Both the position numbers and the translations under genes were made by a program. A stretch of 14,080 bases of DNA from a virus (Duplodnaviria; Heunggongvirae; Uroviricota; Caudoviricetes). The stretch covers positions 1-14,080 of IMG/VR virus record IMGVR_UViG_2541047854_000001; one strand, written 5' to 3'. Position 1 is the stretch's first letter. Each line of letters begins with the position of its first letter. Below, piece by piece: positions 1 through 14,080 of the stretch. The notes below the pieces were generated by a model, which was given only the letters and a program-made list of their open reading frames with translations, did no database searches and was not told where the DNA came from.

Positions 1-201
1 TTACCCATTGGCGCGGCTTAAGAGCTTGTTTTTGAATTCACAATGGTCACGATATAACCATCTTGCGCGCCCGTGGATAACTTTGGCTTTTGGCAAGTCG
101 CCGGACTTAATCCGGTCATAGATGAAGGTTTTACCAAAGCCAGTATCAGCCATGATGAATTTCAAATCAACCAGTGAATCAGGCTGTAGTTCGTGTTGCA
201 T
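1..201 (-). CDS. torI: Prophage excisionase / recombination directionality factor TorI (AlpA/Xis-family winged-helix protein), 66 aa
   Basis: Complete 66-aa ORF, ATG at 201-199 and TAA at 3-1. The translation MQHELQPDSLVDLKFIMADTGFGKTFIYDRIKSG... matches my recollection of K-12 TorI in length and sequence. It sits at the int-distal end of the argW prophage as in K-12. Confidence 0.85.
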   Translation of the reverse strand: MQHELQPDSLVDLKFIMADTGFGKTFIYDRIKSGDLPKAKVIHGRARWLYRDHCEFKNKLLSRANG

Positions 202-220
202 GAGTGCTATCTCCGAATAG

Positions 221-236
221 GGAATCGAACCTGCAA
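221..236. repeat. 16-nt att core (ggaatcgaacctgcaa), exact copy of a segment inside argW at 13012..13027
   Basis: Exact 16/16 identity with the T-arm region of the tRNA at the other end of the element; both flanks diverge immediately. Direct repeat in the same orientation, about 12.8 kb apart. Confidence 0.7.
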
Positions 237-237
237 A

Positions 238-333
238 TCAGGCAATAAAAATACGCTCTATGACGGCGATGGTAGATCAGGATATTTTAAGAAACTGACA
301 GGCCTCATCGAGTGTGAGGCTGTATGGCTCCAT
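238..333 (-). pseudogene. ypdJ: Truncated AlpA/Xis-like excisionase remnant (ypdJ-like): MEPYSLTLDEACQFLKIS, in-frame TGA, frame ends at the att core
   Basis: ATG at 333-331 overlaps the yfdT stop (TAATG). The translation has an AlpA-type HTH N-terminus, is interrupted by TGA at 279-277, continues STIAVIERIFIA and ends at 240-238 just before the att core. Position matches the K-12 ypdJ excisionase fragment between yfdT and torI. Confidence 0.45.
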
Positions 334-638
334 TATTTCACCTCTTGCTGTGACATTGTTGAAAAATGGATATCAGCTCGTTGCTGCCAGACGATCCAAC
401 CGAGAGTCATATCCCATGCCATGTATTCGTTATCGCCGTTTTTTGCTCTCCGACGATCTACTAAGTCACCGAAACGCTTTTCCATGAATAATTCATAAGC
501 TTCGCGTTCATCTGGTTCTACTTCCAGAGATAGGAGTGCGATTTCATAAGCACGGCGCTCAATATCGTCTCGCACGTCAAGGCTGTTGATACGCTCTTTA
601 ATTTCTTTAATCAGTTCTTTGTCGGTAAAAGTGGTCAT
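333..638 (-). CDS. yfdT: CPS-53 prophage protein YfdT, uncharacterized, 101 aa
   Basis: 101-aa ORF with ATG start; the 1-nt stop/start overlap with yfdS (TAATG) suggests translational coupling. Length and gene order match K-12 yfdT. Confidence 0.75.
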   Translation of the reverse strand: MTTFTDKELIKEIKERINSLDVRDDIERRAYEIALLSLEVEPDEREAYELFMEKRFGDLVDRRRAKNGDNEYMAWDMTLGWIVWQQRADIHFSTMSQQEVK

Positions 639-1000
639 TATGCTCCAGCCTCCGGTGCTTTTGGCATTACTGCCCAGTGAGTGATATTGACGTTTTCAAG
701 GTCCCCGACCTGAAATGTCCACTGCCATTCTCCGGTTTCTTTTTGTCCCCAGGTGTACCAGAGAGAACGCCAGCCAATTAGCCAGCCTTCTCCGTTAGCA
801 TCGAATAACAAAACACTTTCATTTGCTGGTGGCAGTTCAGTTGACACTGGTATTACTTTGTTTTCCTGTGCTGCACATTTAGCTTCAAGCGCATCGAATT
901 TACGCACCAGGTATTCAGCATCTGTTTCATTTACTTTCAGATCTCGCGGTACACATCTCCCACGAAGAAACCCTTCCATTTCGAAAACATTCATGCGCAT
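638..1000 (-). CDS. yfdS: CPS-53 prophage protein YfdS, uncharacterized, 120 aa
   Basis: 120-aa ORF with ATG at 1000-998, overlapping the 3' end of yfdR by 10 nt. Length and order match K-12 yfdS. An alternative ATG at 994 overlaps the yfdR stop. Confidence 0.75.
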   Translation of the reverse strand: MRMNVFEMEGFLRGRCVPRDLKVNETDAEYLVRKFDALEAKCAAQENKVIPVSTELPPANESVLLFDANGEGWLIGWRSLWYTWGQKETGEWQWTFQVGDLENVNITHWAVMPKAPEAGA

Positions 1001-1527
1001 TTGCGTAACTCCGATAACTCGTTAAAGCGTTCCATAAACATCCCGTAGGCATGGCCCGGTGCCAGTGGAATCACGTTGAACATCTCTGTTGCCGGGATAC
1101 CTTCCAGTACAGGCCAGAAAGAGCCATCATCAAGCCCGAGATCGCGGCGTTCGGTTGCCAGCATGATGAGATCGGCATATTTCACGGGCGTACTCATAAC
1201 TGGGGGTAACCCGTATTTCTCACGGATTACGGCGTCTATTTTTTCTTCCATTTGTTTATAGTCAGGAAGAAGGCGTTTCAGTGGTGCGGGAATGTCCTGG
1301 CAATACGCTTCTGTTGCATCATGCATTAACGCTTCAAAAGCAAATTCCTGCGGCACCAGCTGGCTGCAAAGAACCGCATGTTGGGCGACGCTGTAGAAGT
1401 GCGAAAGATGACCGGCAAAGCGACAGATATTTGAAAGGGAAACCGCGATATCGTTAATATCGATGTCGTCTTTATTTATCCTGTCATAATAAAAATGCTT
1501 CCCGGAAAAAGTTTTAATAAATGACAT
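991..1527 (-). CDS. yfdR: HD-domain phosphohydrolase (5'-deoxynucleotidase-like) YfdR, 178 aa
   Basis: ATG at 1527-1525 gives 178 aa starting MSFIKTFSGKHFYYDR, preceded by GGGGAA. The track ORF begins 9 codons upstream at a GTG. An H...HD metal-binding signature (SVAQHAV ... LMHDATE) is visible. Length matches K-12 YfdR. Confidence 0.8.
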   Translation of the reverse strand: MSFIKTFSGKHFYYDRINKDDIDINDIAVSLSNICRFAGHLSHFYSVAQHAVLCSQLVPQEFAFEALMHDATEAYCQDIPAPLKRLLPDYKQMEEKIDAVIREKYGLPPVMSTPVKYADLIMLATERRDLGLDDGSFWPVLEGIPATEMFNVIPLAPGHAYGMFMERFNELSELRKCA

Positions 1528-1620
1528 TTTGTTCCCCACGTATATGCGCTGCACCGCGCTGAATTCTGGTAAAAAGAATCCCTCACCATCCGGCGATTAT
1601 TGAGTAAATTACGTTTCCAT

Positions 1621-1642
1621 AAATGCCCCCGCAGGGGCATTT
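1621..1642. other. Intergenic stem-loop between yfdQ and yfdR (9-bp perfect stem aaatgcccc / ggggcattt, 4-nt loop), no U-tract
   Basis: Perfect inverted repeat read directly from the sequence. With no following T-run it looks more like a processing or attenuation hairpin than a strong terminator. Confidence 0.3.
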
Positions 1643-1654
1643 GCAGTAATGAAA

Positions 1655-2479
1655 TCAGGCGGTGAAAGTACCAATAAAGGTTTCTACTTTGCTGTCCTTG
1701 AATTTCTCAACAAGCAGATCACGAAATTCGTTAGCCATTTCTTCCTGCACCGCCTCCAGCTGAATAATGCGCAGAACCAGTACAGGACGATCGCCAGTGA
1801 TAATACTGAGGCGTAATTTAAACGGACGTTCTTTCAGACCTTCAAACGGAACGCATTTAAATTCAAATGCCACTGGCATAATGTCTTTGGTCTTCGCTTC
1901 GACAGACTCCATCAGGGAGCGTTTGCCGCTGAAGTCATTATCTTCAAAATCAGCGGTCTGGTTTGCTTCAATCGTGATTTTACGGACAGCCGCAGCCGCT
2001 TTTGTTGCCTGAATAGCGTCACCATTAGCATCAAAGCCCACAAGATAGTCTGCCCAGTCTTCAATCCATTCTGCTAGTGACTTCTGGGAGTTACGCTCGC
2101 CGTTAATAGACAACAGAGCAGAGAACGGTGCTGTCTTTTTCAGTTTGAGTGTGGCGGTGTTATCTGCGTGACCTGGTTCATCAATAGTACCCAGGTTAAG
2201 CACACTGACGGCTCGCATATTATCGGCATCGATAAAGCAGCGGGTGCCTTCATCTGCAAGATCTTTAGAATAACGGGTAAAGTCATCGATGCTGGCAGTG
2301 GAAAGCGCACCACGGAAACGGAAGCGATTTAAATTAAATTTTTCCAGATCATGAATGCGGAAATTCTCAGGCAATGCCACAGCATCGGCACCAATCTTAC
2401 TGATAATTTCATTAACACCCTGAGCAGAAATAAGGGCATGGATTTGATTAATTGCGGTTGCGTCTAAGTTCTGAGACAT
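1655..2479 (-). CDS. yfdQ: DUF2303-family prophage protein YfdQ, 274 aa
   Basis: 274-aa ORF with ATG at 2479 and a GAGGA Shine-Dalgarno about 7 nt upstream. Length, order and the sequence as I recall it match K-12 YfdQ. Confidence 0.85.
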
Positions 2480-2544
2480 AATAAGTCCTCACTATATAAA
2501 GATATTCAGTGATGAGATAAATAATCGGTTAATTAAGAACGATA

Positions 2545-2907
2545 TTAATGACCTGCTGCGCGGAGTTTTCCGTCAGGTTCACCGGCAAGAGTCAGTAATT
2601 GTCCCTGGTCTTCCTGCAGACTAGTCAGGCGACCACCGCGATTGACATACATTGGCGTTTCGGTGGTGTCTTCTTCGGAAATTTTCCCGCGGTTAGTCGG
2701 GCGAACATATGAGAGTTTGTGTTTGATTTTCACACGGTTCTCATCAAATGGTTCGATTTCCAGGTTGAGTGAGACCTTACCTTTGGTTTTCGTGTTCATC
2801 ACACCGGAAGCGACTTCACTGAGAACTGCGCCGATTTTGGTTTCAAATACGCCGCCGTCCAGCTCCCCAATAAATGCCTGCACATCAGTACTGCGTTCGC
2901 TAGCCAT
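2545..2907 (-). CDS. yfdP: CPS-53 prophage protein YfdP, uncharacterized, 120 aa
   Basis: Internal ATG at 2907-2905 with a strong AGGAG SD (taggagcagaaaaATG) gives 120 aa starting MASERSTDVQ. The track's 226-aa version runs upstream through the GC-rich structured block and is probably an artefact. Confidence 0.75.
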   Translation of the reverse strand: MASERSTDVQAFIGELDGGVFETKIGAVLSEVASGVMNTKTKGKVSLNLEIEPFDENRVKIKHKLSYVRPTNRGKISEEDTTETPMYVNRGGRLTSLQEDQGQLLTLAGEPDGKLRAAGH

Positions 2908-2924
2908 TTTTCTGCTCCTAATCA

Positions 2925-3300
2925 TATCGACCCTGCAAGGTCGGTTGGTTTCTCCACAAAACAGAGAAGAACACCTGCGGTGGCAGCCGCCCGGATGGAT
3001 TGGGTTATGAGCCCGTCGTCCGGTGATGTTCTTCTCTGTTTTGTAAAAAGAGCGGTACCAGCCGGAAGCAAGTGTACAAACTGGTACCGCGAGGACTACA
3101 CACAGCATAAAGTTGTGGTGCCGGGTGCCTCCCGGTGCCTGGCGAAGGTTGCACACCAGGCGGGTGGGTATCCACAGAAGGTCGACTGTCAGCCTCAACC
3201 TTAACCCGCGTGCGCTGAGCCGCATTCACCACAACGCTAAGGATTCTCTCTGGTTGAAAATACTTAGCTGTTATGTGCCTGTCTTTTCACCACTTCAGGC
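2925..3300. other. GC-rich structured noncoding block: candidate ncRNA or cis-acting RNA/DNA element
   Basis: No credible ORF; only overlapping Pro/Arg/Gly-rich ORFs on both strands. Perfect inverted repeats: 18 bp (2956-2973 with 3027-3044, plus 2 bp after a 3-nt bulge), 10 bp (3052-3061 with 3081-3090), 9 bp long-range (3112-3120 with 3227-3235) enclosing three local hairpins. Confidence 0.3.
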
Positions 3301-3345
3301 TCGGTGGTATCTTGGTGTTTTCATATAGCCAAGAAGGAAATAGTT

Positions 3346-3537
3346 ATGACCAAAGAAGAAAAAATTCTTTATTTATTCCAACTATCGGTTAAGACTCACA
3401 CTGCATATCAGACTGCTGCCATGACATCAGATAAAAATTACAGTACGTCAGAAAACCCGATAGACGACATAAGCAAGCTTTACGATAAGTTCGAAGCACT
3501 ACTCGATAAAAAGTTTGCTGAGGCTGGGCTTGAGTGA
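3346..3537 (+). CDS. Hypothetical small protein, 63 aa (MTKEEKILYLFQLSVKTHTAYQ...)
   Basis: ATG at 3346 preceded by AAGGAAA with 5-nt spacing; hydrophilic, no recognisable motif. The track ORF starts 14 codons upstream at a weaker site. Confidence 0.4.
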   Translation: MTKEEKILYLFQLSVKTHTAYQTAAMTSDKNYSTSENPIDDISKLYDKFEALLDKKFAEAGLE

Positions 3538-3705
3538 TTGTTGAATAATCGACAAAACCCAACTTAAATTTTCGTCAGTGGGCTCGATGCCATGTGCGGT
3601 GAGCTCACTTTTCAAAACTCCAAGCAATTCAGAGCTGATTTTCAATATATCTGCTTGATTTCTAACTATTCCCACTTTTTCCTCCCTTGGTCTACGCGCG
3701 GTCAT
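3499..3705 (-). CDS. Hypothetical small protein, 68 aa (or 58 aa from the internal GTG); Arg-rich N-terminus
   Basis: ATG at 3705; inside the ORF, AGGGAGG followed by AAAAA and GTG gives a better initiation site at codon 11. Its 3' end overlaps the convergent 63-aa ORF by 39 nt. First gene left of the repressor/OL region. Confidence 0.3.
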   Translation of the reverse strand: MTARRPREEKVGIVRNQADILKISSELLGVLKSELTAHGIEPTDENLSWVLSIIQQSLKPSLSKLFIE

Positions 3706-3889
3706 GTTTTACGCCCAAACGACTTCACAGTTATTGTTTAAAATCTGGACTTTCATTTCATACACCTGCTTTAACATGAGTGCCTGGTGGCACAACATGA
3801 CTCAACGAATCATCCTGGACTTCATATGCCCCAGGCGGCTACTTCGTGGGCGTCCTGCCTGTTCGTTATCTTTGATACAAAATCTAACT

Positions 3890-3962
3890 TAACTTAGTTA
3901 TTATAGCAAGAGAAAACACCAAACTTTTCTTAGTTCGGTGCCTTAGTTAGAGAAGAGAGGTC
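3890..3962 (-). promoter_or_regulatory. Putative OL/PL-like region: three CTTAGTT half-site repeats and an extended -10 like element downstream of the repressor gene
   Basis: CTTAGTT at 3893-3899, 3929-3935 and 3942-3948, the same motif as in the cI/cro intergenic region. On the minus strand TGcTATAAA lies around 3897-3906. Confidence 0.35.
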
Positions 3963-4589
3963 TTAGAGTTCGTATTGAACTCCTTTGACTACACCAATGA
4001 TAAGGCAATTACCATTGATAGGGATGTTGGGATACCGAGGATTTAATGGCACTAAAAACTTTTGAGGGCCATCGATGACTAATTTTTTTACTGTAGCTTC
4101 GTTTGTTCCATCAAGTCGAGCGATGACTATTTTTCCATGACGAGGTTCTGCATCTGGATCTACAATCACTGTTGCGCCTTCTGGTATTGTTGGGAGGCCA
4201 TTAGGGTTAGTCATGGAGTCACCTTTAACCTCTAATGCAAATGAGTTATCACCAATCTTTAATGATGTATCTACCCACTTGTCCACTTCACTAAACACTT
4301 CTGCTGCCCTGCACTCAGTAAACTGCCCAGCCTGAACCCACGATATTACAGGAACTCTGCGCATGTTTGTGACGAGTTTGCCTTCAAACTCAGCACCATA
4401 AAGAATGTAATCTATTGACGTATTGAAGAACTTCGCTAATTTCGAAAGTGCCTCCCCACCAGGGGTATTGATGTCTTTCTCCCAGTACCCCACAGCAACG
4501 TCGCTTACTCCACAAAATTTACCCAATTCTTTCTGGGACGTTCCGGTAACTCTTCTCAGAGCTTTTATACGCTGACCAACCGTTTCCAT
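3963..4589 (-). CDS. Phage CI-like repressor: XRE-type HTH N-domain plus LexA/S24 peptidase C-domain, 208 aa
   Basis: N-terminal HTH (QKELGKFCGVSDVAVGYWEKD), Ala-Gly candidate cleavage site (VQAGQF), catalytic GDSM serine motif and a downstream Lys (VKKL). Divergent from a Cro-like gene. Confidence 0.85.
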   Translation of the reverse strand: METVGQRIKALRRVTGTSQKELGKFCGVSDVAVGYWEKDINTPGGEALSKLAKFFNTSIDYILYGAEFEGKLVTNMRRVPVISWVQAGQFTECRAAEVFSEVDKWVDTSLKIGDNSFALEVKGDSMTNPNGLPTIPEGATVIVDPDAEPRHGKIVIARLDGTNEATVKKLVIDGPQKFLVPLNPRYPNIPINGNCLIIGVVKGVQYEL

Positions 4590-4686
4590 AGGAGCACCAT
4601 TTCTTGAATTGCTAAGTAATCTTAGTTTTTATTGACCAAAGATAGATTTGTAATTAGCATCTAATAAAACTTAGTTTGGAGGGCGT
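4590..4686. promoter_or_regulatory. Divergent cI/cro operator-promoter region (OR-like)
   Basis: Inverted repeat CTAAG-taat-CTTAG at 4612-4625, CTTAGTT at 4621-4627 and CTTAG at 4670-4674. Candidate rightward promoter: -35 TTGACC at 4632-4637, 17-bp spacer, -10 TAGCAT at 4655-4660; GGAGGG SD at 4678-4683 before the cro ATG at 4687. Confidence 0.5.
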
Positions 4687-4887
4687 ATGACAACTGACGA
4701 TATCGAAAGCTACTTCGGCAGTATTGAGAAAGTTGCTGCTTTTTTCGGCATAACAACTGAAGCCGTTTATCAGTGGCGAAACCGTCCGGGCCAGTTAATT
4801 CCAAAAGGACGTGCAGCAGAAGCTGCATATAGAACTTGCGGACGGTTGCCATTTAAACCTGAGCTTTATGAAAAATCTAATGGATAA
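4687..4887 (+). CDS. Cro-like / YdaS-family small HTH regulator, 66 aa
   Basis: ATG at 4687 with GGAGGG SD; HTH-like segment IEKVAAFFGITTEAVYQWRN. Divergent from the cI-like repressor. Confidence 0.75.
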   Translation: MTTDDIESYFGSIEKVAAFFGITTEAVYQWRNRPGQLIPKGRAAEAAYRTCGRLPFKPELYEKSNG

Positions 4888-5476
4888 ATCGATTAACAGA
4901 AACCACAGAACGATGAGGCTAACCGTGGGTAAGCATCACTGGAAAGTAGAAAAACAGCCTGAGTGGTACGTGAAAGCTGTCAGAAAAACTATCGCAGCGT
5001 TGCCGGGTGGTTACGCTGAAGCAGCTGACTGGCTGGATGTAACAGAAAACGCATTATTTAACCGTCTTCGTGCCGATGGCGATCAGATTTTCCCGCTGGG
5101 ATGGGCAATGATTTTGCAACGTGCTGGTGGAACTCACTTCATTGCTGACGCTGTGGCGCAGTCTGCAAATGGCGTCTTTGTGTCTCTTCCTGACGTCGAG
5201 GATGTGGACAACGCCGATATTAACCAGCGCCTGCTGGAAGTCATTGAACAGATTGGCAGTTATTCCAGACAGATTCGTTCGGCAATCGAAGACGGTGTGG
5301 TGGAACCGCATGAGAAGACAGCAATTAACGACGAGCTGTATCTCTCAATTTCGAAGCTGCAGGAGCATGCAGCACTGGTCTACAAAATCTTTTGCATTTC
5401 AGAAAGTAATGACGCCCGCGAGTGTGCAGCTCCGGGCGCCGTGGCGTGTCGTGACTGTGGAGAAACTAACGCATGA
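4868..5476 (+). CDS. Putative CII/YdaT-like early regulator, possibly chimeric at its C-terminus; start uncertain
   Basis: Immediately follows and overlaps cro in another frame. In-frame starts: GTG 4811 (track), ATG 4868, ATG 4880, and GTG 4925 with a GAGG SD. The Cys-rich C-terminus overlaps the next gene. Product assignment is by position after a YdaS-like Cro. Confidence 0.45.
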
Positions 5477-6044
5477 ACAGTTTAACAACACACTATCGGC
5501 ACTGTTGCCGCCCGGTCCTGCATGGTCAGCCAGCGATCCGGCGATTGCCGGTGCGGCACCTTCATTAACCCGCGTTCATCAGCGTGCGGATGCCCTGATG
5601 CGGGAGCTGGATCCGCGCACCACCACTGAACTGATAAACCGCTGGGAGCGTCTGTGCGGTCTGCCGGATGAATGTATTCCCGCAGGGACACAGACCCTTC
5701 GCCAGCGTCAGCAACGGCTGGATGCGAAGGTTAATCTGGCGGGCGGCATCAATGAGGATTTTTACCTTGCACAGCTTGCTGCCCTGGGCAGACCAGACGC
5801 CACTATCACGCGATACGATAAAAGCACGTTCACCTGCTCATCGGCCTGTACTGACGCGGTGAATGCGCCGGAATGGCGGTATTACTGGCAGATCAACATG
5901 CCAGCCGCCACCAACACCACCTGGATGACATGTGGCGATCCCTGTGATTCCGCGCTGCGTATCTGGGGTGACACCGTTGTCGAGTGTGTGCTTAACAAAC
6001 TCTGCCCGTCGCATACCTACGTAATTTTTAAATATCCGGAGTAA
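5457..6044 (+). CDS. Phage tail protein, Mu gp48 / YmfQ-like (DUF2313 family); start uncertain (GTG 5457, GTG 5451 or ATG 5409)
   Basis: N-terminal [11 protein letters not shown]-type motif and a C-terminal Cys cluster (CGDPCDSAL); sits directly upstream of the tail fiber gene as in Mu-like and e14-like tail modules. The first 96 codons of the track ORF overlap the preceding gene. Confidence 0.6.
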
Positions 6045-6047
6045 TCC

Positions 6048-7061
6048 ATGCATCGTATAGACACGAAAACCGCGCAGAAGGATAAGTTCGGCGCGGGTAA
6101 GAACGGTTTTACCCGTGGTAACCCCCAGACTGGCACGCCTGCCACCGATCTGGATGATGACTACTTTGACATGTTGCAGGAAGAACTTTGTAGCGTTGTT
6201 GAGGCATCCGGTGCCAGTCTGGAGAAGGCGCGGCACGACCAGCTGCTTACCGCGCTTCGTGCGCTGCTGTTAAGCCGCAAGAATCCGTTTGGTGATATCA
6301 AATCGGATGGCACGGTGAAAACGGCTCTCGAAAACCTTGGTTTATCAGACGTTTTACATAAGGGAAATTTTGGTGTCGGGAGTAGGCTGCAAGGTAGTGC
6401 AGCCGGGAATAGCCATGTCGGTGGATTCATGTATGAACCATATCAGGCGAACAATCTTTACCCGCTAAGTGTGGCTTTAATGCAGGCAGCAGGCCCGACA
6501 TCGACAGAATGGGCGCAGCTGGCTGTTTCATATGGTGGGGCATTCAGAGCTTTCCTTGGGCGACAGACTTATAATGGAAATCCTGAAATCAGTGAGTTGT
6601 ACCATGACCAGCGTAAGCCGTCTGCGTCGGATGTTGGTGCCCAACCTCTGAATGCAACTCTCACCACTCTTAGTGGAAAAGATGCGGCAGGATTAAGGAG
6701 CGTCCTAGGGCTTGGAACAACAGCCACAAGAAACGTAGGTACGGGAGCGTCACAAATACCTGATATGAGTTCGTTTTTAAGCGGATCTACAGCATCAGCT
6801 TTTTGGTACAAACTTCCTGGTGGCATGGTGGTGATGGGGGGTAATGCATCTGGAATCGCCTCTGGAACTGCAGGTAATGAGGTCTTCTTCCCAATACCAT
6901 TCCCAAATGCTTGCTCAAGCGTTGTCGTGACATTAGTCAGCAACGGGTTATATGCCGACACAGTCTCGTTTAATACATATATCCCTGGAACTGACCGTTT
7001 TAACATTTATACGAATACAAGCGGCACGTATACTATTTACTACATGGCTTTTGGGAGTTGA
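6048..7061 (+). CDS. Phage side tail fiber protein, 337 aa
   Basis: ATG at 6048 with GGAG SD 6 nt upstream. N-terminus [47 protein letters not shown] is the conserved tail-fiber N-terminal domain; Gly/Ser/Thr-rich distal part. Confidence 0.8.
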
Positions 7062-7062
7062 T

Positions 7063-7479
7063 ATGAACAATTATGTATGGTCTGCATCACATGTTTCATT
7101 TTTTCCAAAATCCATGCTGCCAGATTATGAATCTGCTGGATGGAATCTTTCCGATGTGGTGGATGTTGTTGATGACATTTTTCAAACATACAGATCAATG
7201 CCACCAGAAGGTAAAATTCTTGGGGTTGTTGATGGGATGCCTGAATGGATTGACAAGCCGCCAGTGCCAAATAGCGTGTTGCTTTCAGACGAACTTGCGC
7301 GGCTTGCATCAGAATATAAAAATGACAGAGTTCAATTGAATGACGCATACGTTGCGGCAATGGTAAGCGATAGTCCATCAGAGCAAACTAAGCAGCAGGC
7401 GGTAAGGGATCAAATTATTCAAAGAAAATCTCAGTACACAGCAGACATAGCTGCAGCAAAATTAAAATATCCCATTTAA
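7063..7479 (+). CDS. Tail fiber assembly (chaperone) protein, 138 aa
   Basis: ATG at 7063, 1 nt after the tail fiber stop, with GGGAG SD. The N-terminal YVWSAS...FFP...PEGK...W.D.PP pattern is typical of Tfa proteins. The track ORF starts inside the fiber gene in the same frame. Confidence 0.7.
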   Translation: MNNYVWSASHVSFFPKSMLPDYESAGWNLSDVVDVVDDIFQTYRSMPPEGKILGVVDGMPEWIDKPPVPNSVLLSDELARLASEYKNDRVQLNDAYVAAMVSDSPSEQTKQQAVRDQIIQRKSQYTADIAAAKLKYPI

Positions 7480-7489
7480 GGTGGACATC

Positions 7490-7654
7490 ATGGAAACACA
7501 ATCAAACGAAGAACAAAAACAGAGCCAGCAACAGCAGGATTCTACCGTAAAATTCTGTCCGATATGTGGCTCAACAATGCATCAGCAAGATTATCTGAAT
7601 GGGAAATGGTGGTTTTGTGATGATGAAGAATGCGGTTTTTTTGAGCCCGTCTAA
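7490..7654 (+). CDS. Small zinc-ribbon protein, 54 aa (CPICG ... FCDDEEC), absent from the ORF track
   Basis: ATG at 7490 preceded by AAGGTGGA; Gln-rich N-terminus then CxxC-x16-C-x4-C; TAA at 7652-7654 followed by a terminator hairpin. Confidence 0.5.
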   Translation: METQSNEEQKQSQQQQDSTVKFCPICGSTMHQQDYLNGKWWFCDDEECGFFEPV

Positions 7655-7674
7655 AGTATTTGTTTGCAGGAATT

Positions 7675-7705
7675 AAAGCCCTCTCTGGAGGGCTCATATT
7701 TATTT
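7675..7705. terminator. Bidirectional intrinsic terminator between the convergent zinc-ribbon ORF and acyltransferase gene
   Basis: 7-bp GC-rich stem agccctc / gagggct (7677-7683 with 7688-7694), 4-nt loop, T-rich tract after it on the plus strand and a moderately T-rich tract on the minus strand. Confidence 0.5.
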
Positions 7706-8488
7706 TGCGTATTTCTTTCTAAACCCAAGAAATGGCTTTTCAATCAACTCAAAACATATCTTAGAAAAGATAAGAATTGCAGGTAGTAAAATCAAAAAAT
7801 TAATGACAGCATTAACATTATCATTGTCGATAAACCTCGGAATTCCAAATGTTTTATGGAATGAGTAAAGAACCACACCATGCAATATGTATTCAGAAAA
7901 GCTTACCTCACCAAGTTTAGATAATCCATTATCTATAATGGCAGGTGTTTTTATGCTTGACGATAAGTAAGCAAATACAAAAATACCCCACATGCAAGCC
8001 TCCAGATATGATAAAGAAGTTACATATGGTGTTGGAATGTACCATAAACCCTCAGATCTAAGTGTTAAAAGAGAAAAGAAGACAATTGCAGAACTGGCGA
8101 TGATAAAGATCGGATTAGCGAATTTATCCTTATGGTTTATATATAGATATCCAAACACCATCCCAATTAATAGCTGGTCAAATCGACCAAGCATTGTTAA
8201 GTAGTAATAATGATTGTTCAGATATGAATCCGACCCTAATTCCCCACCATAGATTGCAACGATCATGGTTCTCCAGGCAAGCCAAAAAAGAGACAGATAC
8301 ACAATATACTTCACACCATATCTGTTAAGAAAAAGAGCTAGGAAAGGAAATATTAAGTAAAATTGAAATTCTACTGCTATAGTCCACGTTTGCCCGAAAT
8401 GAGCCAGCAACGGTGATGTTTGCAAATTCGAGAAAAGGAACAAGGATAAAGCATCAGAAAATGTGGCAGTACCTCTAGATAGAGACAT
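7700..8488 (-). CDS. Acyltransferase family 3 (O-antigen O-acetyltransferase-like) membrane protein, N-terminally truncated relative to the family; possible pseudogene
   Basis: TWTIAVEFQFYLIFPF matches the family's SVE.QFY motif, but only about 34 residues after the first ATG. An in-frame R-x-x-R segment (FNRFIRIFPLL) lies upstream of that ATG, and the frame stays open up to the gtrS stop codon. AT-rich and polytopic. Confidence 0.65.
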   Translation of the reverse strand: MSLSRGTATFSDALSLFLFSNLQTSPLLAHFGQTWTIAVEFQFYLIFPFLALFLNRYGVKYIVYLSLFWLAWRTMIVAIYGGELGSDSYLNNHYYYLTMLGRFDQLLIGMVFGYLYINHKDKFANPIFIIASSAIVFFSLLTLRSEGLWYIPTPYVTSLSYLEACMWGIFVFAYLSSSIKTPAIIDNGLSKLGEVSFSEYILHGVVLYSFHKTFGIPRFIDNDNVNAVINFLILLPAILIFSKICFELIEKPFLGFRKKYAK

Positions 8489-8565
8489 GGCGGTAATCCA
8501 TGCTCCAGAAAGGAGTGGGAAGATGCGAATAAATCTATTGAAGATAAAAGACTTATAAGAAATTG

Positions 8566-8595
8566 AAAATCCTCCGGCATAGCCGGAGGATTTTT
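8566..8595 (-). terminator. Strong intrinsic terminator hairpin immediately downstream of the GtrS-like gene
   Basis: 13-bp stem (aaaatcctccggc / gccggaggatttt) with a 3-nt loop, T-runs on both sides, 2 nt after the gtrS stop. Confidence 0.55.
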
Positions 8596-8596
8596 G

Positions 8597-10261
8597 TTAA
8601 AGGGTAAAGTCTATTTGATAATATCTTTTAGAAGGCGTTGTTGAGTCAAATGCTCCAAATGAAGCGTTTTTGATATACCATGATGGCATGTAGTTCAATT
8701 TCGCATAAAGGAACACCCTATCATTTACATAAGCGTAATTTGGCTCGAAATCAAAATTGTGATAATTATCAAATATATCCATCACATGGAAAAGGAAACG
8801 TTGATTAGGCTGTTCAGATAGCCTTTCTTCATGCGTTATTTCAAATAAAAACACAGTCTCCAAACAATATTTATCAGTATACATATAAATACCTTTCAAG
8901 CCTTTCTTGGTAAACATGTTACTGCTGTCGTGAATTTTATATTTATTATTATCTATAACAGAATAATCAAATATTGTGCCATATCCTATAATGTTTTTTT
9001 TATTGTAGTATTTGGACATGGCATCAAAGTTTGTCCATGTGTCAAACATATATGTTGAACTTGGCATTGCTTTGAAATAAAACTCAGGTATTAATGTTTC
9101 TTTTTCATTACTATCATTTTCTTGTATTAATTTAATTCGAATTGAGTTTTGTAAATTAATCGAATGATAAGCGGATATTACCGATATAGACTCAACAATA
9201 AAAGTCAAGAACATCATAGAGTAAAAAACTCTAATAAAATTAGTGCTTAAAATATCATTACGAATAAAGTTTAATGAATATGCGATAGACATTAAACAAA
9301 ATACAAATGATGGTGTTTTCGCTCTATCAGGGAATGCTGGAGAAAACACCATAACAAAAGAGCAGCCTAAAGAAGCCAATAAAAGCACTATGGATATTAA
9401 AAAATCAGTAGGCTTGCCATCTTTTGTAATTAGATTCGATTTTTGAATGCGTATACATAATAAAATTGATACTATAGCTATACTATAAGCTAGTTTAGAT
9501 GATTTAAAGACTTCGGGCATTCTATGAAAAAAATGCAAGTCAATTTTTTCTATTAAAGAAAGTGAGCGCCAGTCTGCGAATGATGGATCCATCATCCTCG
9601 ACTCATTTCCTGGTGTTGCCAATAAAAAAACAGCACCTGTTATTACTAAAATAAAAATAGGCAAAAGCCTTAAATCATTCTTTTTTATTATTACTAGTAA
9701 GTATAAATAACAAAGTAAGATTATACCAATCAAAGTTAAGCTTGCATTTTCATTTGTACATCCTGCTAGTAATGATGCAGGATAAACAACAGGATTGATT
9801 TTTTTATTTTGTATGTAACCAATTACTTCTTTAGCTACAAAAACATATAAAACGGAAGTCCATAAATAGTTTGCACTACCAACAATCCATAAATTTGATT
9901 GTCCAAAGCTTGGATGAGAAAGAAAAAAAATAATCGAAATAAAAGATAATATATACCAGCTTTTTACGGTGTTGTCAAATTTTGAAATTAAATGCAAAAG
10001 CAAGAAAACACCAAATGTTTGAATTGCTGCTATAACAATTTTATTATTCACCAACAACAATGTTGGACTTATAAAATCAGCAACAATTCTTCCACTCCAT
10101 GTTAGATAATGATGCAAGTGCGCATCAAAATTGAATCCAATAATTGCATAGCCATAATCATCTGACTGGAGAGGTGTGTAGTAATTCAAAGTGTAAACTA
10201 CAGCAAGAAATGTTGCGCATACAAAAAAATAAATATATTTATTTAATTTTGGATATTTCAC
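8597..10261 (-). CDS. Type-specific O-antigen glucosyltransferase (GtrS/GtrC-like), 554 aa, polytopic with a soluble C-terminal domain
   Basis: Third gene of a gtrA-gtrB operon; GTG start overlaps the gtrB stop (GTGA). Very AT-rich with many hydrophobic segments. It is 554 aa against 443 aa for K-12 YfdI as I recall it, so a different serotype-specific allele. Confidence 0.7.
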
Positions 10262-11181
10262 TTATCACCTCTGTGCTTTAAGATGTATTTTGGTCTTTTC
10301 TTGGTCTCTATATATATTCTACCAATATATTCACCTAAAAAACCTATACCGATTAACTGAACACCGCCAAGGAATAATATCGAAACAAGTAAAGAAGGAT
10401 ACCCCCTTACAGGATTACCAAAGGCGATTGTATCAATGATCATCCATGCACCATAAAAGAATGAAAAACTAGCCACGACAAGTCCGATATAGGTCCACAT
10501 TCTTAAAGGGAATGTTGAAAAGCTGGTAATGCCCTCAAGCGCTAGGTTCCATAGTTTCCAACCATTAAATTTTGTGCTACCAGCGACACGTTCTGCGCGA
10601 ACATACTCAACAACATCGGTGCGACCACCTACCCAACTCAATACACCTTTCATGAAAAGATTCCGCTCAGGTAGCAGCTTAATGTTCTCAACCACCTCTC
10701 GTGACATAAGACGGAAGTCACCGACATTCTCTTCGATCTGAGGGGTGCTGATTTTGTTATGTAGTTTATAGAACCACTCAGCCGTCTTACGCTTAAGGCG
10801 CCCATCAGTAGAGCGATCAGCGCGCTTGGCAAGCACCATGTCCGCGCCTGCCTGCCACTTCTCAATCAGATGAGGTATAACTTCAATCGGATCTTGTAAG
10901 TCGACATCGATCGGTATAATCGCTTCGCCGGTTGCGTGATCAAGTCCGGCGAATAGAGCAGGTTCTTTACCAAAGTTGCGTGTAAATGACAATGGAACAA
11001 CTAGCGGGTCTGAAATAGCAAGAGCGTTAATAATTGATTCCGTGGCATCTTTGCTTCCGTCATTTATGAAAATAATTTCTACTTCATATGGCTTCAACTC
11101 TTCGAATTCACGTACCGTTTTATAAAAAATTGGTATCGTATCTTCTTCATTGAAGACAGGAACGACCAGAGATATCTTCAT
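10258..11181 (-). CDS. gtrB: Bactoprenol glucosyltransferase GtrB (GT2 family), 307 aa
   Basis: [14 protein letters not shown]-terminus and DVDLQD (DxD) motif with two C-terminal TM segments; ATG overlaps the gtrA stop (ATGA). Corresponds to K-12 yfdH. Confidence 0.9.
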
Positions 11182-11540
11182 TTTGCATCCCTAAATACAA
11201 TGAACTTTGAATAGACGAAACCGCACACCAGGCTGATGGCGGAAAAGGTAATAAGTGTGATAAACGGAGGAAGGGAGCATTTGTCAGCAGCCCAACCTAC
11301 AGTCGCACTCAACATTCCCATGAATCCAACGTATAACATGTAGCGCATCGTTGTAGTTGATGCTTTGAATGTGAATCTTGCATTCGCGAAGAAGCTAAAA
11401 CTCACAGCCACAACGAACCCGGCTAAGTTTGCAAGGGTTTGATTGGTATGCGCGGCGTAGATACATACACCAAAAACCACCCAGTGTATAAGTGTGTTCA
11501 GTACACCAATCGAGGTATACCTCGCGAATAGCTTTAACAT
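11178..11540 (-). CDS. gtrA: Bactoprenol-linked glucose translocase (flippase) GtrA, 120 aa
   Basis: 120-aa hydrophobic GtrA-family protein directly upstream of and coupled to gtrB. Corresponds to K-12 yfdG. Confidence 0.85.
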
Positions 11541-11622
11541 TTCTTCTATCAGCTAATAATCAAAGGCATGAAGTCTATCATCCAAGTCTCAATTGATCGA
11601 GACTTGCTGTAATCACTGAAAC

Positions 11623-11658
11623 ACACAAAGCCTTGCACTGGATTGCAAGGCTTTGTGT
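11623..11658 (-). terminator. 15-bp perfect hairpin downstream of intS (acacaaagccttgca / tgcaaggctttgtgt, 6-nt loop); weak U-tract
   Basis: Perfect inverted repeat 20 nt after the intS stop, lying between intS and the gtr operon. Candidate terminator or insulator. Confidence 0.4.
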
Positions 11659-11678
11659 CATCCGATAGTTAAGGTGGA

Positions 11679-12836
11679 TCACTCCACCTTTTCATCAAGC
11701 CAGTCCGCCCACCACTGCATCATTTCTCTTCGCTTGTCGAGATACTGAGCATGGTTGTAAATTCCACGTACAGATCCGCCATTGGCATGTGCCAGTTGCA
11801 TTTCAATAGCGTCAGCAGGCCATTCGTGCTCGTTCATAATCGTGCTGAATTCATGCCTGAATCCGTGACCGCTTTCCAGACCTTCATAGCCGATTTGTTT
11901 GATCACAAGCAGTACCGCATTCTCGCAGATTGGCTTCTTCTTATCGTTGCGCCCGGCAAAAACAAACTCTGATACTGGCTTGGTGATTGAGCTTAGCGTA
12001 GTGAGAAGTTCAACTACCTGGTCTGATATAGGAACAACATGAATCTTGCGGCCCTTCATCACACTGGCGTCGATAGTGATAATCCTGTTTTCAAAATCGA
12101 CGTTCTTCCATTGCATGGAACGAAGCTCTTTCGTTCTTAGGGCTGTGTAGCGTAAAACTTTGGTCGCAATGAGCGATACGATACTTCCTGAAAATGTTGC
12201 AAGTGCTTTGTTGAATTCCGGGATCTGGTCGGCAGGTAAAAACGGGAAGTTCTTCTTGCGGTATCCCTTCATGGCGTCAGCAAGGTCAGGTGCCGGGTTA
12301 TATTTAGCCCTACCAGTGACAATAGCGTAACGGAAAACCTCGCCGCATCTTCTGCGGGCTTTGTTGGCTCGCTCCATTGCACCGCGATCTTCAAATCTGC
12401 GGATTACTTCCAGCAGTTGCATCGGCTCAATATCCTGAATTTCAAGGCTGCCGATGATAGGTAAAATGTCGTCATCAAACATTTTTGCAAGTTCAGTTGC
12501 ATAGCCTACTGACCAGACTTGCTTCTTGTGCTCGTACCATTCCTTGTATATTGCACTAAAGGAATTGTTGTTAGACGAAGCCTTTTTCGCCTTTACCGGA
12601 TCGATACCAACCGAGATGTCTTTCCTCGCAGTCCATGCCTTATCCCTTGCCTCCTGCAAAGTCATTAGCGGATATTTTCCTACGGTCAGGATTTTCTCCT
12701 TACCGTCAATCTTGTAGCGAAGCTGCCATACCTTTTTCCCTGACACAGGGACATAAAGGTACAGGCCATTACCATCGAGAAGGCGGTATGGTTTTTCTTT
12801 CGGCTTTGCTGCTTCAATCTGCTTAACGGTGAGCAT
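11679..12836 (-). CDS. intS: Prophage integrase IntS (P4-type tyrosine recombinase), 385 aa
   Basis: Adjacent to and co-oriented with argW. ATG at 12836 gives 385 aa starting MLTVKQIEAAKPKEKPYRLLDGNGLYLYV. The track ORF starts 12 codons upstream at GTG 12872. C-terminal catalytic region contains HGFRH and a tyrosine. Confidence 0.9.
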   Translation of the reverse strand: MLTVKQIEAAKPKEKPYRLLDGNGLYLYVPVSGKKVWQLRYKIDGKEKILTVGKYPLMTLQEARDKAWTARKDISVGIDPVKAKKASSNNNSFSAIYKEWYEHKKQVWSVGYATELAKMFDDDILPIIGSLEIQDIEPMQLLEVIRRFEDRGAMERANKARRRCGEVFRYAIVTGRAKYNPAPDLADAMKGYRKKNFPFLPADQIPEFNKALATFSGSIVSLIATKVLRYTALRTKELRSMQWKNVDFENRIITIDASVMKGRKIHVVPISDQVVELLTTLSSITKPVSEFVFAGRNDKKKPICENAVLLVIKQIGYEGLESGHGFRHEFSTIMNEHEWPADAIEMQLAHANGGSVRGIYNHAQYLDKRREMMQWWADWLDEKVE

Positions 12837-12997
12837 GGGTAAAAATCCGGTGGGTAAAATTATTTTATCCACTTTTTACCCGTCATGGAGTGCGGCTGTC
12901 AACGATCTGAAGCGAACCATGACAAACTGTGAATCTACGGAAGGCTTGATATTTAGGGGGTTTTGCGGACTGGTACGGATGGGAGCGAACTGATAAA

Positions 12998-13072
12998 TGG
13001 TGTCCCCTGCAGGAATCGAACCTGCAATTAGCCCTTAGGAGGGGCTCGTTATATCCATTTAACTAAGAGGAC
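12998..13072 (-). tRNA. argW: tRNA-Arg (anticodon CCU), 75 nt, encoded CCA
   Basis: Reverse complement GTCCTCTTAGTTAAATGGATATAACGAGCCCCTCCTAAGGGCTAATTGCAGGTTCGATTCCTGCAGGGGACACCA folds as a cloverleaf: 7-bp acceptor stem with one G-U pair, anticodon stem AGCCC/GGGCT with loop CTCCTAA, T-arm GCAGG/CCTGC. Confidence 0.9.
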
Positions 13073-13125
13073 AATGCGGCATGAGTATACCCGCTAATGG
13101 AGTGCGGGGTAAGTACGCTGCCGCT
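13073..13125 (-). promoter_or_regulatory. Putative argW promoter (-10 TATACT about 12 nt upstream of the mature tRNA 5' end)
   Basis: On the minus strand TATACT lies at 13088-13083, followed by a GC-rich discriminator-like catgccgc. The -35 is weak. Confidence 0.3.
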
Positions 13126-13147
13126 CGATTGCTTAAACCCTCGCCAT

Positions 13148-14080
13148 TTATGCCGGGTTTTTATAATTTTTCTTAATGTTTTCCGCACGTTCTGCTTTTT
13201 GGCGTGCTTCTGCTTTACGCTTATTGCTCATGTCGTTACGAATCTGTGCATGACTCATTAACGCGAAGATAAAGGTGCCGCCGCAGATGTTCCCCGCTAA
13301 AGTAGGTAGTGCGAAGGGCCAGATGAAATCGCTCCAGTGCAGCGTACCGTTAAACACCAGATAGAGGATTTCAACAGAACCGACCACGATATGGGTGGTG
13401 TCACCCAGGGCAATAAGCCAGGTCATCAATATAATCACCACAATCTTTGCCGCACCCGCTGCAGGAAACATCCAAACCATAGTGGCGATCAGCCAGCCGG
13501 AAATGATCGCGTTGGCAAACATCTCGCTGGGGGTGTTCTTCATCACATCCATGCCGATTTTGACAAATGCATCGCGAGTTTCTTCATTGAAGATAGGCAT
13601 ATATTCAAATGCCCACGCCGCAATACCTGTCCCGAGAATATTACCCAGCAGCACGACGCCCCATAACCGTATAAGTAAGCCGACGTTGCTCATTGTCGGT
13701 TTTTGCATGACGGGTAGTACCGCAGTCACGGTATTTTCGGTAAATAATTGCTGGCGGGCCATAATGACGATAATAAAACCAAAGGTATAACCGAGATTCT
13801 CCAGCAAGAAGCTGCCCGGCACACCTTCCAGTTCGACATGAAATATCCCTTTTGCCAGTAACGAAGCGCCCATCGACAGACCCGCCGCAATGGCTGACCA
13901 CAGTAGCGCCATTGCGTCGCGTTCCAGCTCTTTTTCACCATCCTGGCGGATATGCTCATGAATTGCCATCGCCCGGGAGGGGAGTCGGTCTTCATCTATT
14001 TCTATTTTTTTGCCGCGCTCTTTTTCTTCGCTCTCAACTTCAATTTCGTCGCTGTGTTGATCAATTTTGTCGTTGTCCAT
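13148..14080 (-). CDS. yfdC: Formate/nitrite transporter (FNT) family inner-membrane protein YfdC, 310 aa
   Basis: ATG at 14080-14078, exactly at the window edge. Acidic N-terminal tail followed by multiple TM segments. Length and position next to argW match K-12 yfdC. Confidence 0.85.
   Translation of the reverse strand: MDNDKIDQHSDEIEVESEEKERGKKIEIDEDRLPSRAMAIHEHIRQDGEKELERDAMALLWSAIAAGLSMGASLLAKGIFHVELEGVPGSFLLENLGYTFGFIIVIMARQQLFTENTVTAVLPVMQKPTMSNVGLLIRLWGVVLLGNILGTGIAAWAFEYMPIFNEETRDAFVKIGMDVMKNTPSEMFANAIISGWLIATMVWMFPAAGAAKIVVIILMTWLIALGDTTHIVVGSVEILYLVFNGTLHWSDFIWPFALPTLAGNICGGTFIFALMSHAQIRNDMSNKRKAEARQKAERAENIKKNYKNPA

Follow-up and report, generated by a model that had tools for sequence, protein, structure and literature searches.

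What occupies the G+C-rich, strongly folded block between yfdP and the repressor region of an SfV-like lambdoid prophage of Escherichia coli, where no convincing protein-coding gene is found? We addressed this question for positions 2925-3345 of a 14,080-nucleotide (nt) stretch of viral DNA (IMG/VR record IMGVR_UViG_2541047854_000001, positions 1 to 14,080), referred to herein as the window. An earlier note on this DNA had proposed a candidate novel RNA or cis element and had left its strand unassigned. We consider it likely that the block consists of two consecutive, independently mobile RNA modules, a small RNA (sRNA) of the STnc100 type (module 1) followed by a tRNA-like three-way junction (module 2), which act as proposed below. 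All of the evidence points to the minus strand. The note's expectation of an RNA-based element rather than a gene held, while its single novel RNA became two unrelated modules. Its failure to match a known RNA family holds for the element built on the large stem, which matches no Rfam family, and does not hold for the main body, which scores above the gathering threshold for STnc100 (RF02076).

The composition and repeats described in that note were reproduced. The GC fraction is 0.527 over 2925-3345 and 0.552 over 2956-3265, whereas the left and right flanks have 0.455 and 0.405, and the window as a whole 0.437. Positions 2956-2980 are 88% complementary to 3020-3044 over 25 nt, with an 18-bp perfect core; the 10-bp repeat (3052-3061 with 3081-3090) and the 9-bp long-range pair (3112-3120 with 3227-3235) match at 10/10 and 9/9 positions. 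When 2925-3345 was folded and compared with dinucleotide shuffles, z was -6.7 for the minus strand and -5.1 for the plus strand, and 0 of 100 shuffles were as stable. The block is 100% identical in E. coli strain M8 and others, and some form of it is present in 2,786 of 5,426 complete E. coli genomes.

A divergent STnc100-family RNA with a pseudoknotted core

Module 1 is a new, divergent member of the known STnc100 family in an unusual genomic position. Scanning the whole window with Rfam 15 gave two hits above the gathering score, tRNA-Arg(CCU) and STnc100, the latter on the minus strand only. The parts of the module are as follows.

3265-3043, minus strand: STnc100-family RNA (RF02076); cmscan score 49.1 bits against a gathering score of 47, E = 3e-8, model positions 1-206
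3257-3285, minus strand: candidate sRNA promoter (AAGACA, 17 nt, TATTTT), weak, hand-picked and under the scan threshold
3227-3235 with 3112-3120, minus strand: P1, GUUGUGGUG with CACCACAAC, a perfect 9-bp repeat that closes the multi-helix core
3208-3223, minus strand: P2 hairpin, GCGGC-UCAGC-GCaCGC in the minimum free energy (MFE) fold, a subfamily variant of CCCCU-GUGCGG-AGGGG
3202-3196 with 3151-3145, minus strand: pseudoknot, AAGGUUG with CAACCUU, joining the P2-P3 junction to the P4 loop
3138-3160, minus strand: P4 hairpin, CCUGGUG-UGCAACCUU-CGCCAGG, whose loop holds the 3' strand of the pseudoknot (3145-3151)
3116-3137, minus strand: invariant 22-nt core, CACCGGGAGGCACCCGGCACCA, containing the P5 hairpin (3121-3135) and the start of the P1 3' strand
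3091-3111, minus strand: linker, UUUAUGCUGUGUGUAGUCCUC, single-stranded, candidate seed
3043-3090, minus strand: intrinsic terminator T1, GCGGUACCAG, a 19-nt loop, CUGGUACCGC, then UCUUUUUAC; perfect 10-bp GC-rich stem

Several helices that the earlier note had listed separately are parts of this one RNA: the 9-bp pair is P1, the hairpin at 3121-3135 is P5, that at 3137-3161 is P4 and the 10-bp repeat is the stem of T1.

Since the margin over the gathering score is thin, family membership was tested independently, through the core and through covariation. The 22-nt core is the same as the Rfam consensus, and at least 119 IMG/VR contigs contain an exact match to it; the window has a single occurrence, where chance would give 0. 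Among the core matches listed, 103 distinct neighbourhoods fell into 60 clusters, and those other than the window's own shared 40-55% identity with the window outside the core. Covariation was assessed on a structure-blind MAFFT alignment of 60 family representatives. The structure was paired in 94.5% of cells versus 87.3% in column shuffles, and its covariation score of 0.236, versus 0.111, was reached by 0 of 500 shuffles; controls in which the 3' partner was slid by 1-3 columns paired in 36-48%. The two outer P1 pairs both covary (AU 28/GC 25/GU 6 and CG 25/UA 13/UG 10), P2 changes from CG to UA or GC within the family, and the P4 arms vary in sequence between clusters with pairing maintained. 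Compensatory change among relatives, which the earlier note had named as the sign to look for in the stems, was found in the helices of both modules, and the G-U pairs in these helices work on the minus strand only.

The covariation also supports a pseudoknot that is absent from Rfam's structure line for STnc100. In nearly every cluster the P4 loop is complementary to the stretch that follows P2, with sequences that differ from cluster to cluster; the pairs seen elsewhere in the family include CCAGUC/GACUGG, CUGGUG/CACCGG, AUCAGCG/UGCUGGU, AGACUGACAAA/UUUGUCAGUCU and CUAGGC/GUCUAG. Over 62 distinct pairs of P2-P3 junction (J2/3) and loop, the longest complement averaged 6.06 nt, versus 4.71 ± 0.11 nt with the loops permuted (maximum 5.06 in 200 permutations). 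On the MAFFT alignment 86% of the pseudoknot's cells pair and four of its five pairs change on both sides. A double compensatory change, AAGGCUG/CAGCCUU, is present in the Cronobacter phage phiES15, which is closely related to the window's subtype. All three local hairpins described by the earlier note (3121-3135, 3137-3161 and 3178-3202) exist in the MFE fold, but the last of them competes with the pseudoknot favoured by the family-wide covariation, as the 5' strand of the pseudoknot could alternatively form this hairpin in the window. Because ST64B weakens the 3178-3202 hairpin yet keeps the pseudoknot intact, we favour the pseudoknot.

Comparison with relatives also bears on the ends of the module. 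Conservation with ST64B extends from approximately 3256 to 3112 at 88% and the sequence farther upstream is unrelated; the true 5' end probably lies near 3250-3256. At the 3' end, ST64B has a wholly different terminator stem (GUCGGCGUC/GACGCCGAC) followed by the same tail, CUUUUUAC, and phiES15 has another terminator at the position of T1, with a different stem and a retained U-rich tail. A stem that is replaced while its tail is kept is the pattern expected of a minus-strand RNA that ends there. Within the linker, UGCUGUGUGUAGUC is kept in ST64B, phiES15, the Citrobacter phage phiNP and the Escherichia phage Flotzy despite different flanking terminators, and we regard the linker as a candidate seed for pairing with mRNAs.

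A sigma-70 promoter scan returned none above threshold for the sRNA. In many STnc100 members a conserved pair of promoter-like boxes (TTGACx, 17-18 nt, TAAATT) ends some 7 nt ahead of P1, and a local promoter is suggested because terminator-like hairpins lie just upstream of the SfV and ST64B copies. A sigma-54 promoter in the conserved upstream box AGGCACATAACAGC was considered and rejected, the GG-to-GC spacing being N9, not N10.

Some viral contigs carry tandem STnc100 copies with a common core and differing variable arms, at spacings of 484 nt (contigs L021, L038, L052 and L072), 267 nt (L077), 275 nt (L125) and 922 nt (L015). The P1-like plasmid prophages RCS47, SJ46 and JL22 have a distant copy of the core region, at about 71% identity; in RCS47 (contig L129, 2001-2129) it lies between upl/plp and a lipoprotein gene, near phage tRNA genes.

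STnc100 copies are numerous in pathogenic E. coli, and the 11 copies of strain EDL933 are all transcribed, one of them verified by northern blotting (PMC5331693). EcOnc27/sRNA103, which partly overlaps an STnc100 annotation downstream of stx2B (PMC12711010), is bound by Hfq in Hfq-CRAC data, has been detected by northern probing and is paired with the anti-sRNA AsxR (PMC7873438). In strain Sakai, at least eight prophages have such an sRNA dyad in the interval from the late promoter to the lysis genes (PMC7873438, PMC12711010). PasD1 and PasD2 of enteropathogenic E. coli show Hfq-dependent stability and have RIL-seq partners (PMC8550237), and PasD and STnc100 have been judged to be of common ancestry (bioRxiv 10.64898/2026.05.13.724894). 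In uninduced cells, members of the family are present as discrete RNAs bound by Hfq (PMC5331693, PMC7873438, PMC8550237).

The window copy resembles STnc100/EcOnc27, to which PasD is related, in its full-length covariance model match, identical 22-nt core, P1/P2/P5 layout and 3' intrinsic terminator, and like the STnc100 copies it is prophage-encoded and co-oriented with its downstream genes. It differs in its variant P2, in its linker and terminator, in having no detected AsxR or AgvB partner, and in its place in the early-left operon beside the repressor rather than between the late promoter and the lysis genes. Most STnc100 copies have Q, methylase, RusA or tRNA genes on one side and nanS-p, holin or lysozyme genes on the other, whereas the window's subtype lies in early-left operons, ahead of yfdP (window, ST64B, sal3) or ahead of kil (phiES15). 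The AgvB/EcOnc06 and AsxR/EcOnc27 dyads of enterohaemorrhagic E. coli (EHEC) are likewise lambdoid-prophage cargo; the dyad sRNAs are bound by Hfq (PMC7873438), as the window copy would be by analogy. AgvB is transcribed from the strand opposite EcOnc06, the one pair for which the geometry is spelled out (PMC7873438). Unlike these dyads, the window gave no Rfam match to AgvB or AsxR on either strand up to E 10, and no plus-strand promoter for such an antisense partner was seen. A literature search for ST64B sRNAs at this locus found nothing relevant.

A tRNA-like three-way junction behind the terminator

The second module, absent from Rfam 15, provides the most interesting lead of the block. 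It follows T1 directly, and 48 nt separate its 3' end from the start codon of yfdP.

2956-3044, minus strand: tRNA-like three-way junction; P1 pairs 3044-3027 with 2973-2956, P2 pairs 3023-3019 with 2995-2991, and P3 spans 2990-2977
2996-3017, minus strand: invariant loop motif, GACGGGCUCAUAACCCAAUCCA (GACGGGCUCAUAAYCCAAUCCA as RNA), with GGG-CUCAUAA-CCC at 3014-3002

The junction is built from a long P1, a P2 that carries the motif (a 3-bp stem with a 7-nt loop, GGG-CUCAUAA-CCC) and a variable hairpin, P3. Its MFE is -47.5 kcal/mol (z = -7.4). Across 22 representatives, 94.4% of cells pair versus 88.3% in shuffles, and the covariation score of 0.206, versus 0.105, was reached by 0 of 500 shuffles. 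Each of the three helices covaries, with two-sided changes at ten pairs; slid controls paired in 35-51%. We assign the junction to the minus strand because its G-U pairs would be A-C mismatches on the opposite strand.

Free-energy minimisation gave the same junction for the E. coli, Klebsiella and Pantoea versions. The more distant hits, in phages of Klebsiella, Pantoea and Citrobacter, match the window over just some 37 nt within the "loop" of the large repeat. The 5-bp helix around the motif covaries: it is CCGGA/UCCGG in the window, CCGGG/CCCGG in phiNP and Flotzy, CCUGA/UCGGG in a Klebsiella phage and ACGGA/UCCGU in a Pantoea phage. The motif occurs once in the window (0 expected by chance) and exactly in at least 119 viral contigs, with flanks that are unrelated across genera. 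It was also found in 23 species-representative genomes, all of them Enterobacterales (Escherichia, Shigella, Citrobacter, Enterobacter, Kosakonia, Mixta, Buttiauxella, Leclercia, Phytobacter, Pseudescherichia, Raoultella, Pseudocitrobacter, Erwinia and Pantoea) save one assembly labelled Chryseobacterium, in which the flanks of the match (L248) look enterobacterial and contamination is likely.

The neighbours of the junction separate it from module 1. A run of at least five T, the tail of a terminator, precedes it in 104 of 107 distinct neighbourhoods of the E. coli type, and a yfdP-like open reading frame (ORF) follows within 250 nt in 79 of the 107. An STnc100 core lies upstream in only 24 of these neighbourhoods, and no STnc100 hit was found at the junction loci of other genera (0/18); we therefore regard the two modules as independent. 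T1 accompanies the junction as often as it accompanies the sRNA.

The loop of the junction, whose GGG-CUCAUAA-CCC stem-loop is the same in every copy, shares CGxCGGGCUCAUAACCC with the anticodon arm of tRNA-fMet and is identical over CGGGCUCAUAACCC to a tRNA-Met gene. All of the 5,426 E. coli genomes carry annotated tRNA-Met genes that match the 77-nt tRNA used for comparison at 100% identity, with a median of four per genome, and we take this tRNA to be the initiator. Klebsiella-type junctions extend the likeness. Their P1 has 6-7 bp (GGCCUG/CAGGCC) and is followed by N-CCA in nine of nine distinct neighbourhoods, in all of which a tRNA gene ends no more than 40 nt upstream; the gap was about 5 nt in the two loci checked, the same as the gaps between the tRNAs. 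In Klebsiella phages the junction closes a tRNA array (Asn, Phe, Thr, Arg; contigs L131, 1332-1648, and L144, 3916-4376), and it may be processed like a tRNA. In the one locus examined for this, the array lies between Q and the lysis genes with a separate terminator after the junction; contig L131 reads junction, intrinsic terminator, holin gene.

The junction is not a tRNA in the ordinary sense. ARAGORN in its standard, relaxed and mitochondrial modes made no credible tRNA call on it, on which ground a canonical or D-armless tRNA was rejected, and the Rfam tRNA model gave no hit over it up to E 10. It resembles the initiator tRNA in an anticodon arm with the three G-C pairs, to which the Klebsiella type adds an acceptor-like stem, N-CCA and a place in an array. 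It differs in lacking a D arm and a T-loop consensus, and in having an "anticodon arm" of 3 bp plus an internal loop instead of 5 bp. Other RNAs that mimic tRNAs include the thrS operator, the tRNA-like domain of tmRNA, and the species 1 and 2 RNAs of the T4 tRNA cluster. A literature search for a phage mimic of the initiator anticodon found nothing relevant. To judge from sequence and arrangement, the junction is most likely a functional derivative of a phage initiator-tRNA gene.

Position in the early-left operon and competing readings

The block lies inside the leftward early (PL) operon, between yfdP and the small ORF that precedes the repressor region. The surrounding features are listed here; PGAP denotes the Prokaryotic Genome Annotation Pipeline.

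991-1554, minus strand: yfdR
1655-2479, minus strand: yfdQ
2545-2907, minus strand: yfdP, with its ATG at 2907
2915-2956, minus strand: yfdP leader, with the conserved UGGAGAAAC (2956-2948), a small covarying hairpin (2943-2928) and the Shine-Dalgarno sequence AGGAG (2919-2915)
3346-3537, plus strand: small ORF annotated by PGAP
3882-3935, minus strand: likely PL, an extended -10 TGCTATAAT (3908-3900) between two operator-like repeats, just left of cI
3963-4589, minus strand: cI-like repressor
4687-4887, plus strand: cro

The operator-like repeat ACTAAG..CTTAGT occurs in four copies, two flanking the likely PL and two in the cI-cro intergenic region (4612-4628 and 4661-4677), and the extended -10 at 3908-3900 is probably PL with its OL operators. 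With the promoter read in this way, the block lies about 650 nt downstream of PL and on the transcribed strand. The hairpin of the yfdP leader varies in sequence among relatives (CGACCUUGCAGGGUCG versus GGCGGUGGCAGCCGCC) with pairing retained, and in some relatives a mini-ORF of about 10 codons starts in this leader at AUGGAGAAAC. The earlier note had placed the block at a repressor-adjacent site for accessory loci, and this was borne out: in other phages the slot between yfdP and the repressor is filled by unrelated plus-strand cargo genes. Shared sequence is bounded by mosaic joints near 3090 and 3311. Stx2c, mEp460 and cdtI-type phages have only 2908-3090 in common with the window, and SfV-type phages are alike up to approximately 3311.

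Two small ORFs, 3346-3537 (plus strand; phrog_2605) and 3499-3705 (minus strand; phrog_15476), overlap at their 3' ends. The latter is encoded on the PL strand, where GGGAGG, a strong Shine-Dalgarno sequence, precedes an internal GTG; it may be the first PL gene. The tRNA-Arg(CCU) found in the Rfam scan is at 13001-13072 on the minus strand, about 10 kb from yfdP; this spacing matches that of CPS-53 in E. coli K-12, in which the intervening content differs. The whole block is absent from K-12 CPS-53.

The position within the PL operon raises the main rival reading, which we regard as unlikely though deserving of weight: that the block controls the operon in cis, as an attenuator or processive-antitermination checkpoint for reaching yfdPQR-xis-int, and that the "sRNA" is a terminated leader. 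Both modules lie on the PL strand downstream of the likely PL and its operators, and a terminator always precedes the junction. No convincing promoter was found between T1 and the yfdP ATG, so that yfdP expression seems to need read-through of T1. STnc100 copies are invariably co-oriented with the genes behind them (34/34, 35/35, 19/19 and 17/17 in the largest clusters of downstream genes) and sit shortly upstream of operons such as kil-gam, the lysis genes and, in a P1-like phage, the lipoprotein gene by plp/upl. However, those downstream genes are unrelated between copies, family members carry the promoter-like boxes described above, and in uninduced cells they are found as discrete, Hfq-bound RNAs. 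A riboswitch-style switch between the core and the 5' arm of T1 was rejected, as inspection by eye found no such alternative pairing beyond a 5-nt ACCAG/CUGGU match. For the junction, the N-CCA end and the place in tRNA arrays seen in Klebsiella fit a stand-alone RNA.

An antitermination module, also raised by the earlier note, found no support in the form of a nut- or put-type site. The put element of HK022 is comparable in being a structured nascent RNA in the early operon of a lambdoid phage without a recognisable N, with terminators that transcription has to pass before the downstream genes. It is about 70 nt long, comprises two stem-loops without a terminator, and is present in two copies, one behind PL and the other behind PR (PMC9378689). 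Module 1 instead has a five-helix, pseudoknotted core of about 150 nt and its own terminator, lies some 650 nt from PL, and is present in one copy in the 14 kb, which include the rightward operon; put was rejected on these grounds of copy number and architecture. A lambda-type nut site (boxA plus boxB) was likewise rejected, since the sole boxA-like string, CGCUCUUUUUAC, is the tail of T1 and SfV and SfII have CGUCCUUUUU instead.

The large stem at 2956-3044 was read in the earlier note as a possible terminator for both directions, and as a strong two-way element it could insulate yfdP. The window itself invites this reading, as its 18-bp stem stands between an A-run and a U-run and both strands read stem and then UUUUGU. 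We consider it improbable all the same. The U-run after the stem (CUGUUUUG) is lineage-specific; most relatives have GUUGUGU there, in a 3' flank GUUGUGU(A)UGG without a U-tract. The Klebsiella-type stem, short and ending in N-CCA, has its own separate terminator downstream, and in the window a real terminator, T1, is already present directly upstream. The most conserved part of this three-way junction is the 22-nt motif in its loop, which a terminator does not need.

Very improbable, in our view, is that the invariant sequences are sites that act as DNA, such as a recombination or mosaic boundary, an attP remnant or a protein operator. Two exactly conserved 22-mers in otherwise divergent DNA, the mosaic joints near 3090 and 3311, and a tRNA similarity that recalls attP cores would suit such sites. 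Against this, the helices around both 22-mers covary, with G-U pairs that work on the minus strand only. Neither invariant core coincides with a joint, since these lie at the terminator and the upstream edge; the resemblance to tRNA-fMet is confined to the anticodon arm and does not include the 3' half carried by attP sites; and the elements are far from int and att. No support was found for the recombination site that the earlier note had listed among its options.

That note had found no credible ORF in the block, which is right in substance, though PGAP annotates a frameshifted hypothetical pseudogene at 2922-3232 (minus strand), phage SfII has an intact 113-amino-acid (aa) ORF there (ORF35), and a PHROG family built from such annotations matches a 49-aa ORF over the big hairpin. 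A decayed protein-coding gene, which the earlier note had named as an outcome that would refute its reading, is nevertheless the least probable reading of all and hardly tenable. No frame has a Pfam match and nothing in PHROGs matches over the sRNA body. ST64B departs from the window by 1-nt indels at three separate places within the conserved part of the RNA, and the helices of other family members vary through insertions of arbitrary length, with base pairing retained. Each strand has long ORFs in more than one frame, which is to be expected of GC-rich structured DNA, and the predicted protein is of low complexity, rich in Arg, Cys, Pro and His. The PGAP pseudogene and SfII ORF35 are best read as annotation artefacts.

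Proposed functions and their meaning

For the block as an sRNA followed by a tRNA-like junction, we propose the following mode of action. By analogy with its relatives, module 1 would accumulate as a discrete RNA of about 200 nt, would bind Hfq as EcOnc27 and PasD1/PasD2 do, and would base-pair with mRNAs in trans through the linker, as moron-type regulatory cargo; its invariant pseudoknotted core may bind another partner. Module 2 most likely works as a mimic or decoy that offers its initiator-anticodon arm to a conserved factor of the host, and may also mark a processing point as an RNase P-type signal. Several known factors read the features that the junction displays. VapC-type nucleases cut tRNA-fMet in the anticodon loop, methionyl-tRNA synthetase (MetRS) reads the CAU anticodon, and initiation factor 3 (IF3) and the P site of the 30S subunit read the three G-C pairs of the initiator tRNA.

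A number of observations weigh against this proposal. For module 1, the Rfam score lies just 2 bits over its threshold, and P2 deviates from the STnc100 consensus, with its pairs flagged by Rfam as non-standard in the window copy. A discrete transcript of this copy is predicted from its relatives, and with a promoter that is weak and unproven the RNA could be a terminated PL leader instead of the product of an independent gene. A search within the window for a target complementary to the linker found none. Furthermore, plain base-pairing sRNAs do not usually have a multi-helix, pseudoknotted core of invariant sequence, which suggests a protein or RNA partner. Module 2 lacks the two outermost pairs that a genuine anticodon stem would have; its E. 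coli type, with a P1 of 18 bp, does not end in CCA, and the factor that the junction would bind is putative. The fixed place of the junction after a terminator and before yfdP could also mean a role in cis.

A bolder version of the proposal, which we put forward tentatively and with less than even confidence, is that the junction is the first described member of an uncatalogued class of phage tRNA-derived RNAs, conserved in temperate phages of Enterobacterales, and a tRNA-fMet mimic serving as a decoy for a VapC-type anticodon nuclease or as a ligand of MetRS, IF3 or the 30S P site, and that the STnc100 core is a handle for another partner, in RNAs made of a scaffold plus a variable region.

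These results remove a recurrent mis-annotation, as PGAP and phage records place ORFs and pseudogenes over the block. They place an STnc100-type RNA in an early-left operon, outside the late-region "dyad" context known from EHEC, and the covariation gives a very common and poorly understood family of prophage sRNAs a pseudoknotted architecture with an invariant core. If the junction is indeed a decoy or ligand for a host factor, it would be a new kind of player in the contest between phage and host over tRNAs and translation initiation.

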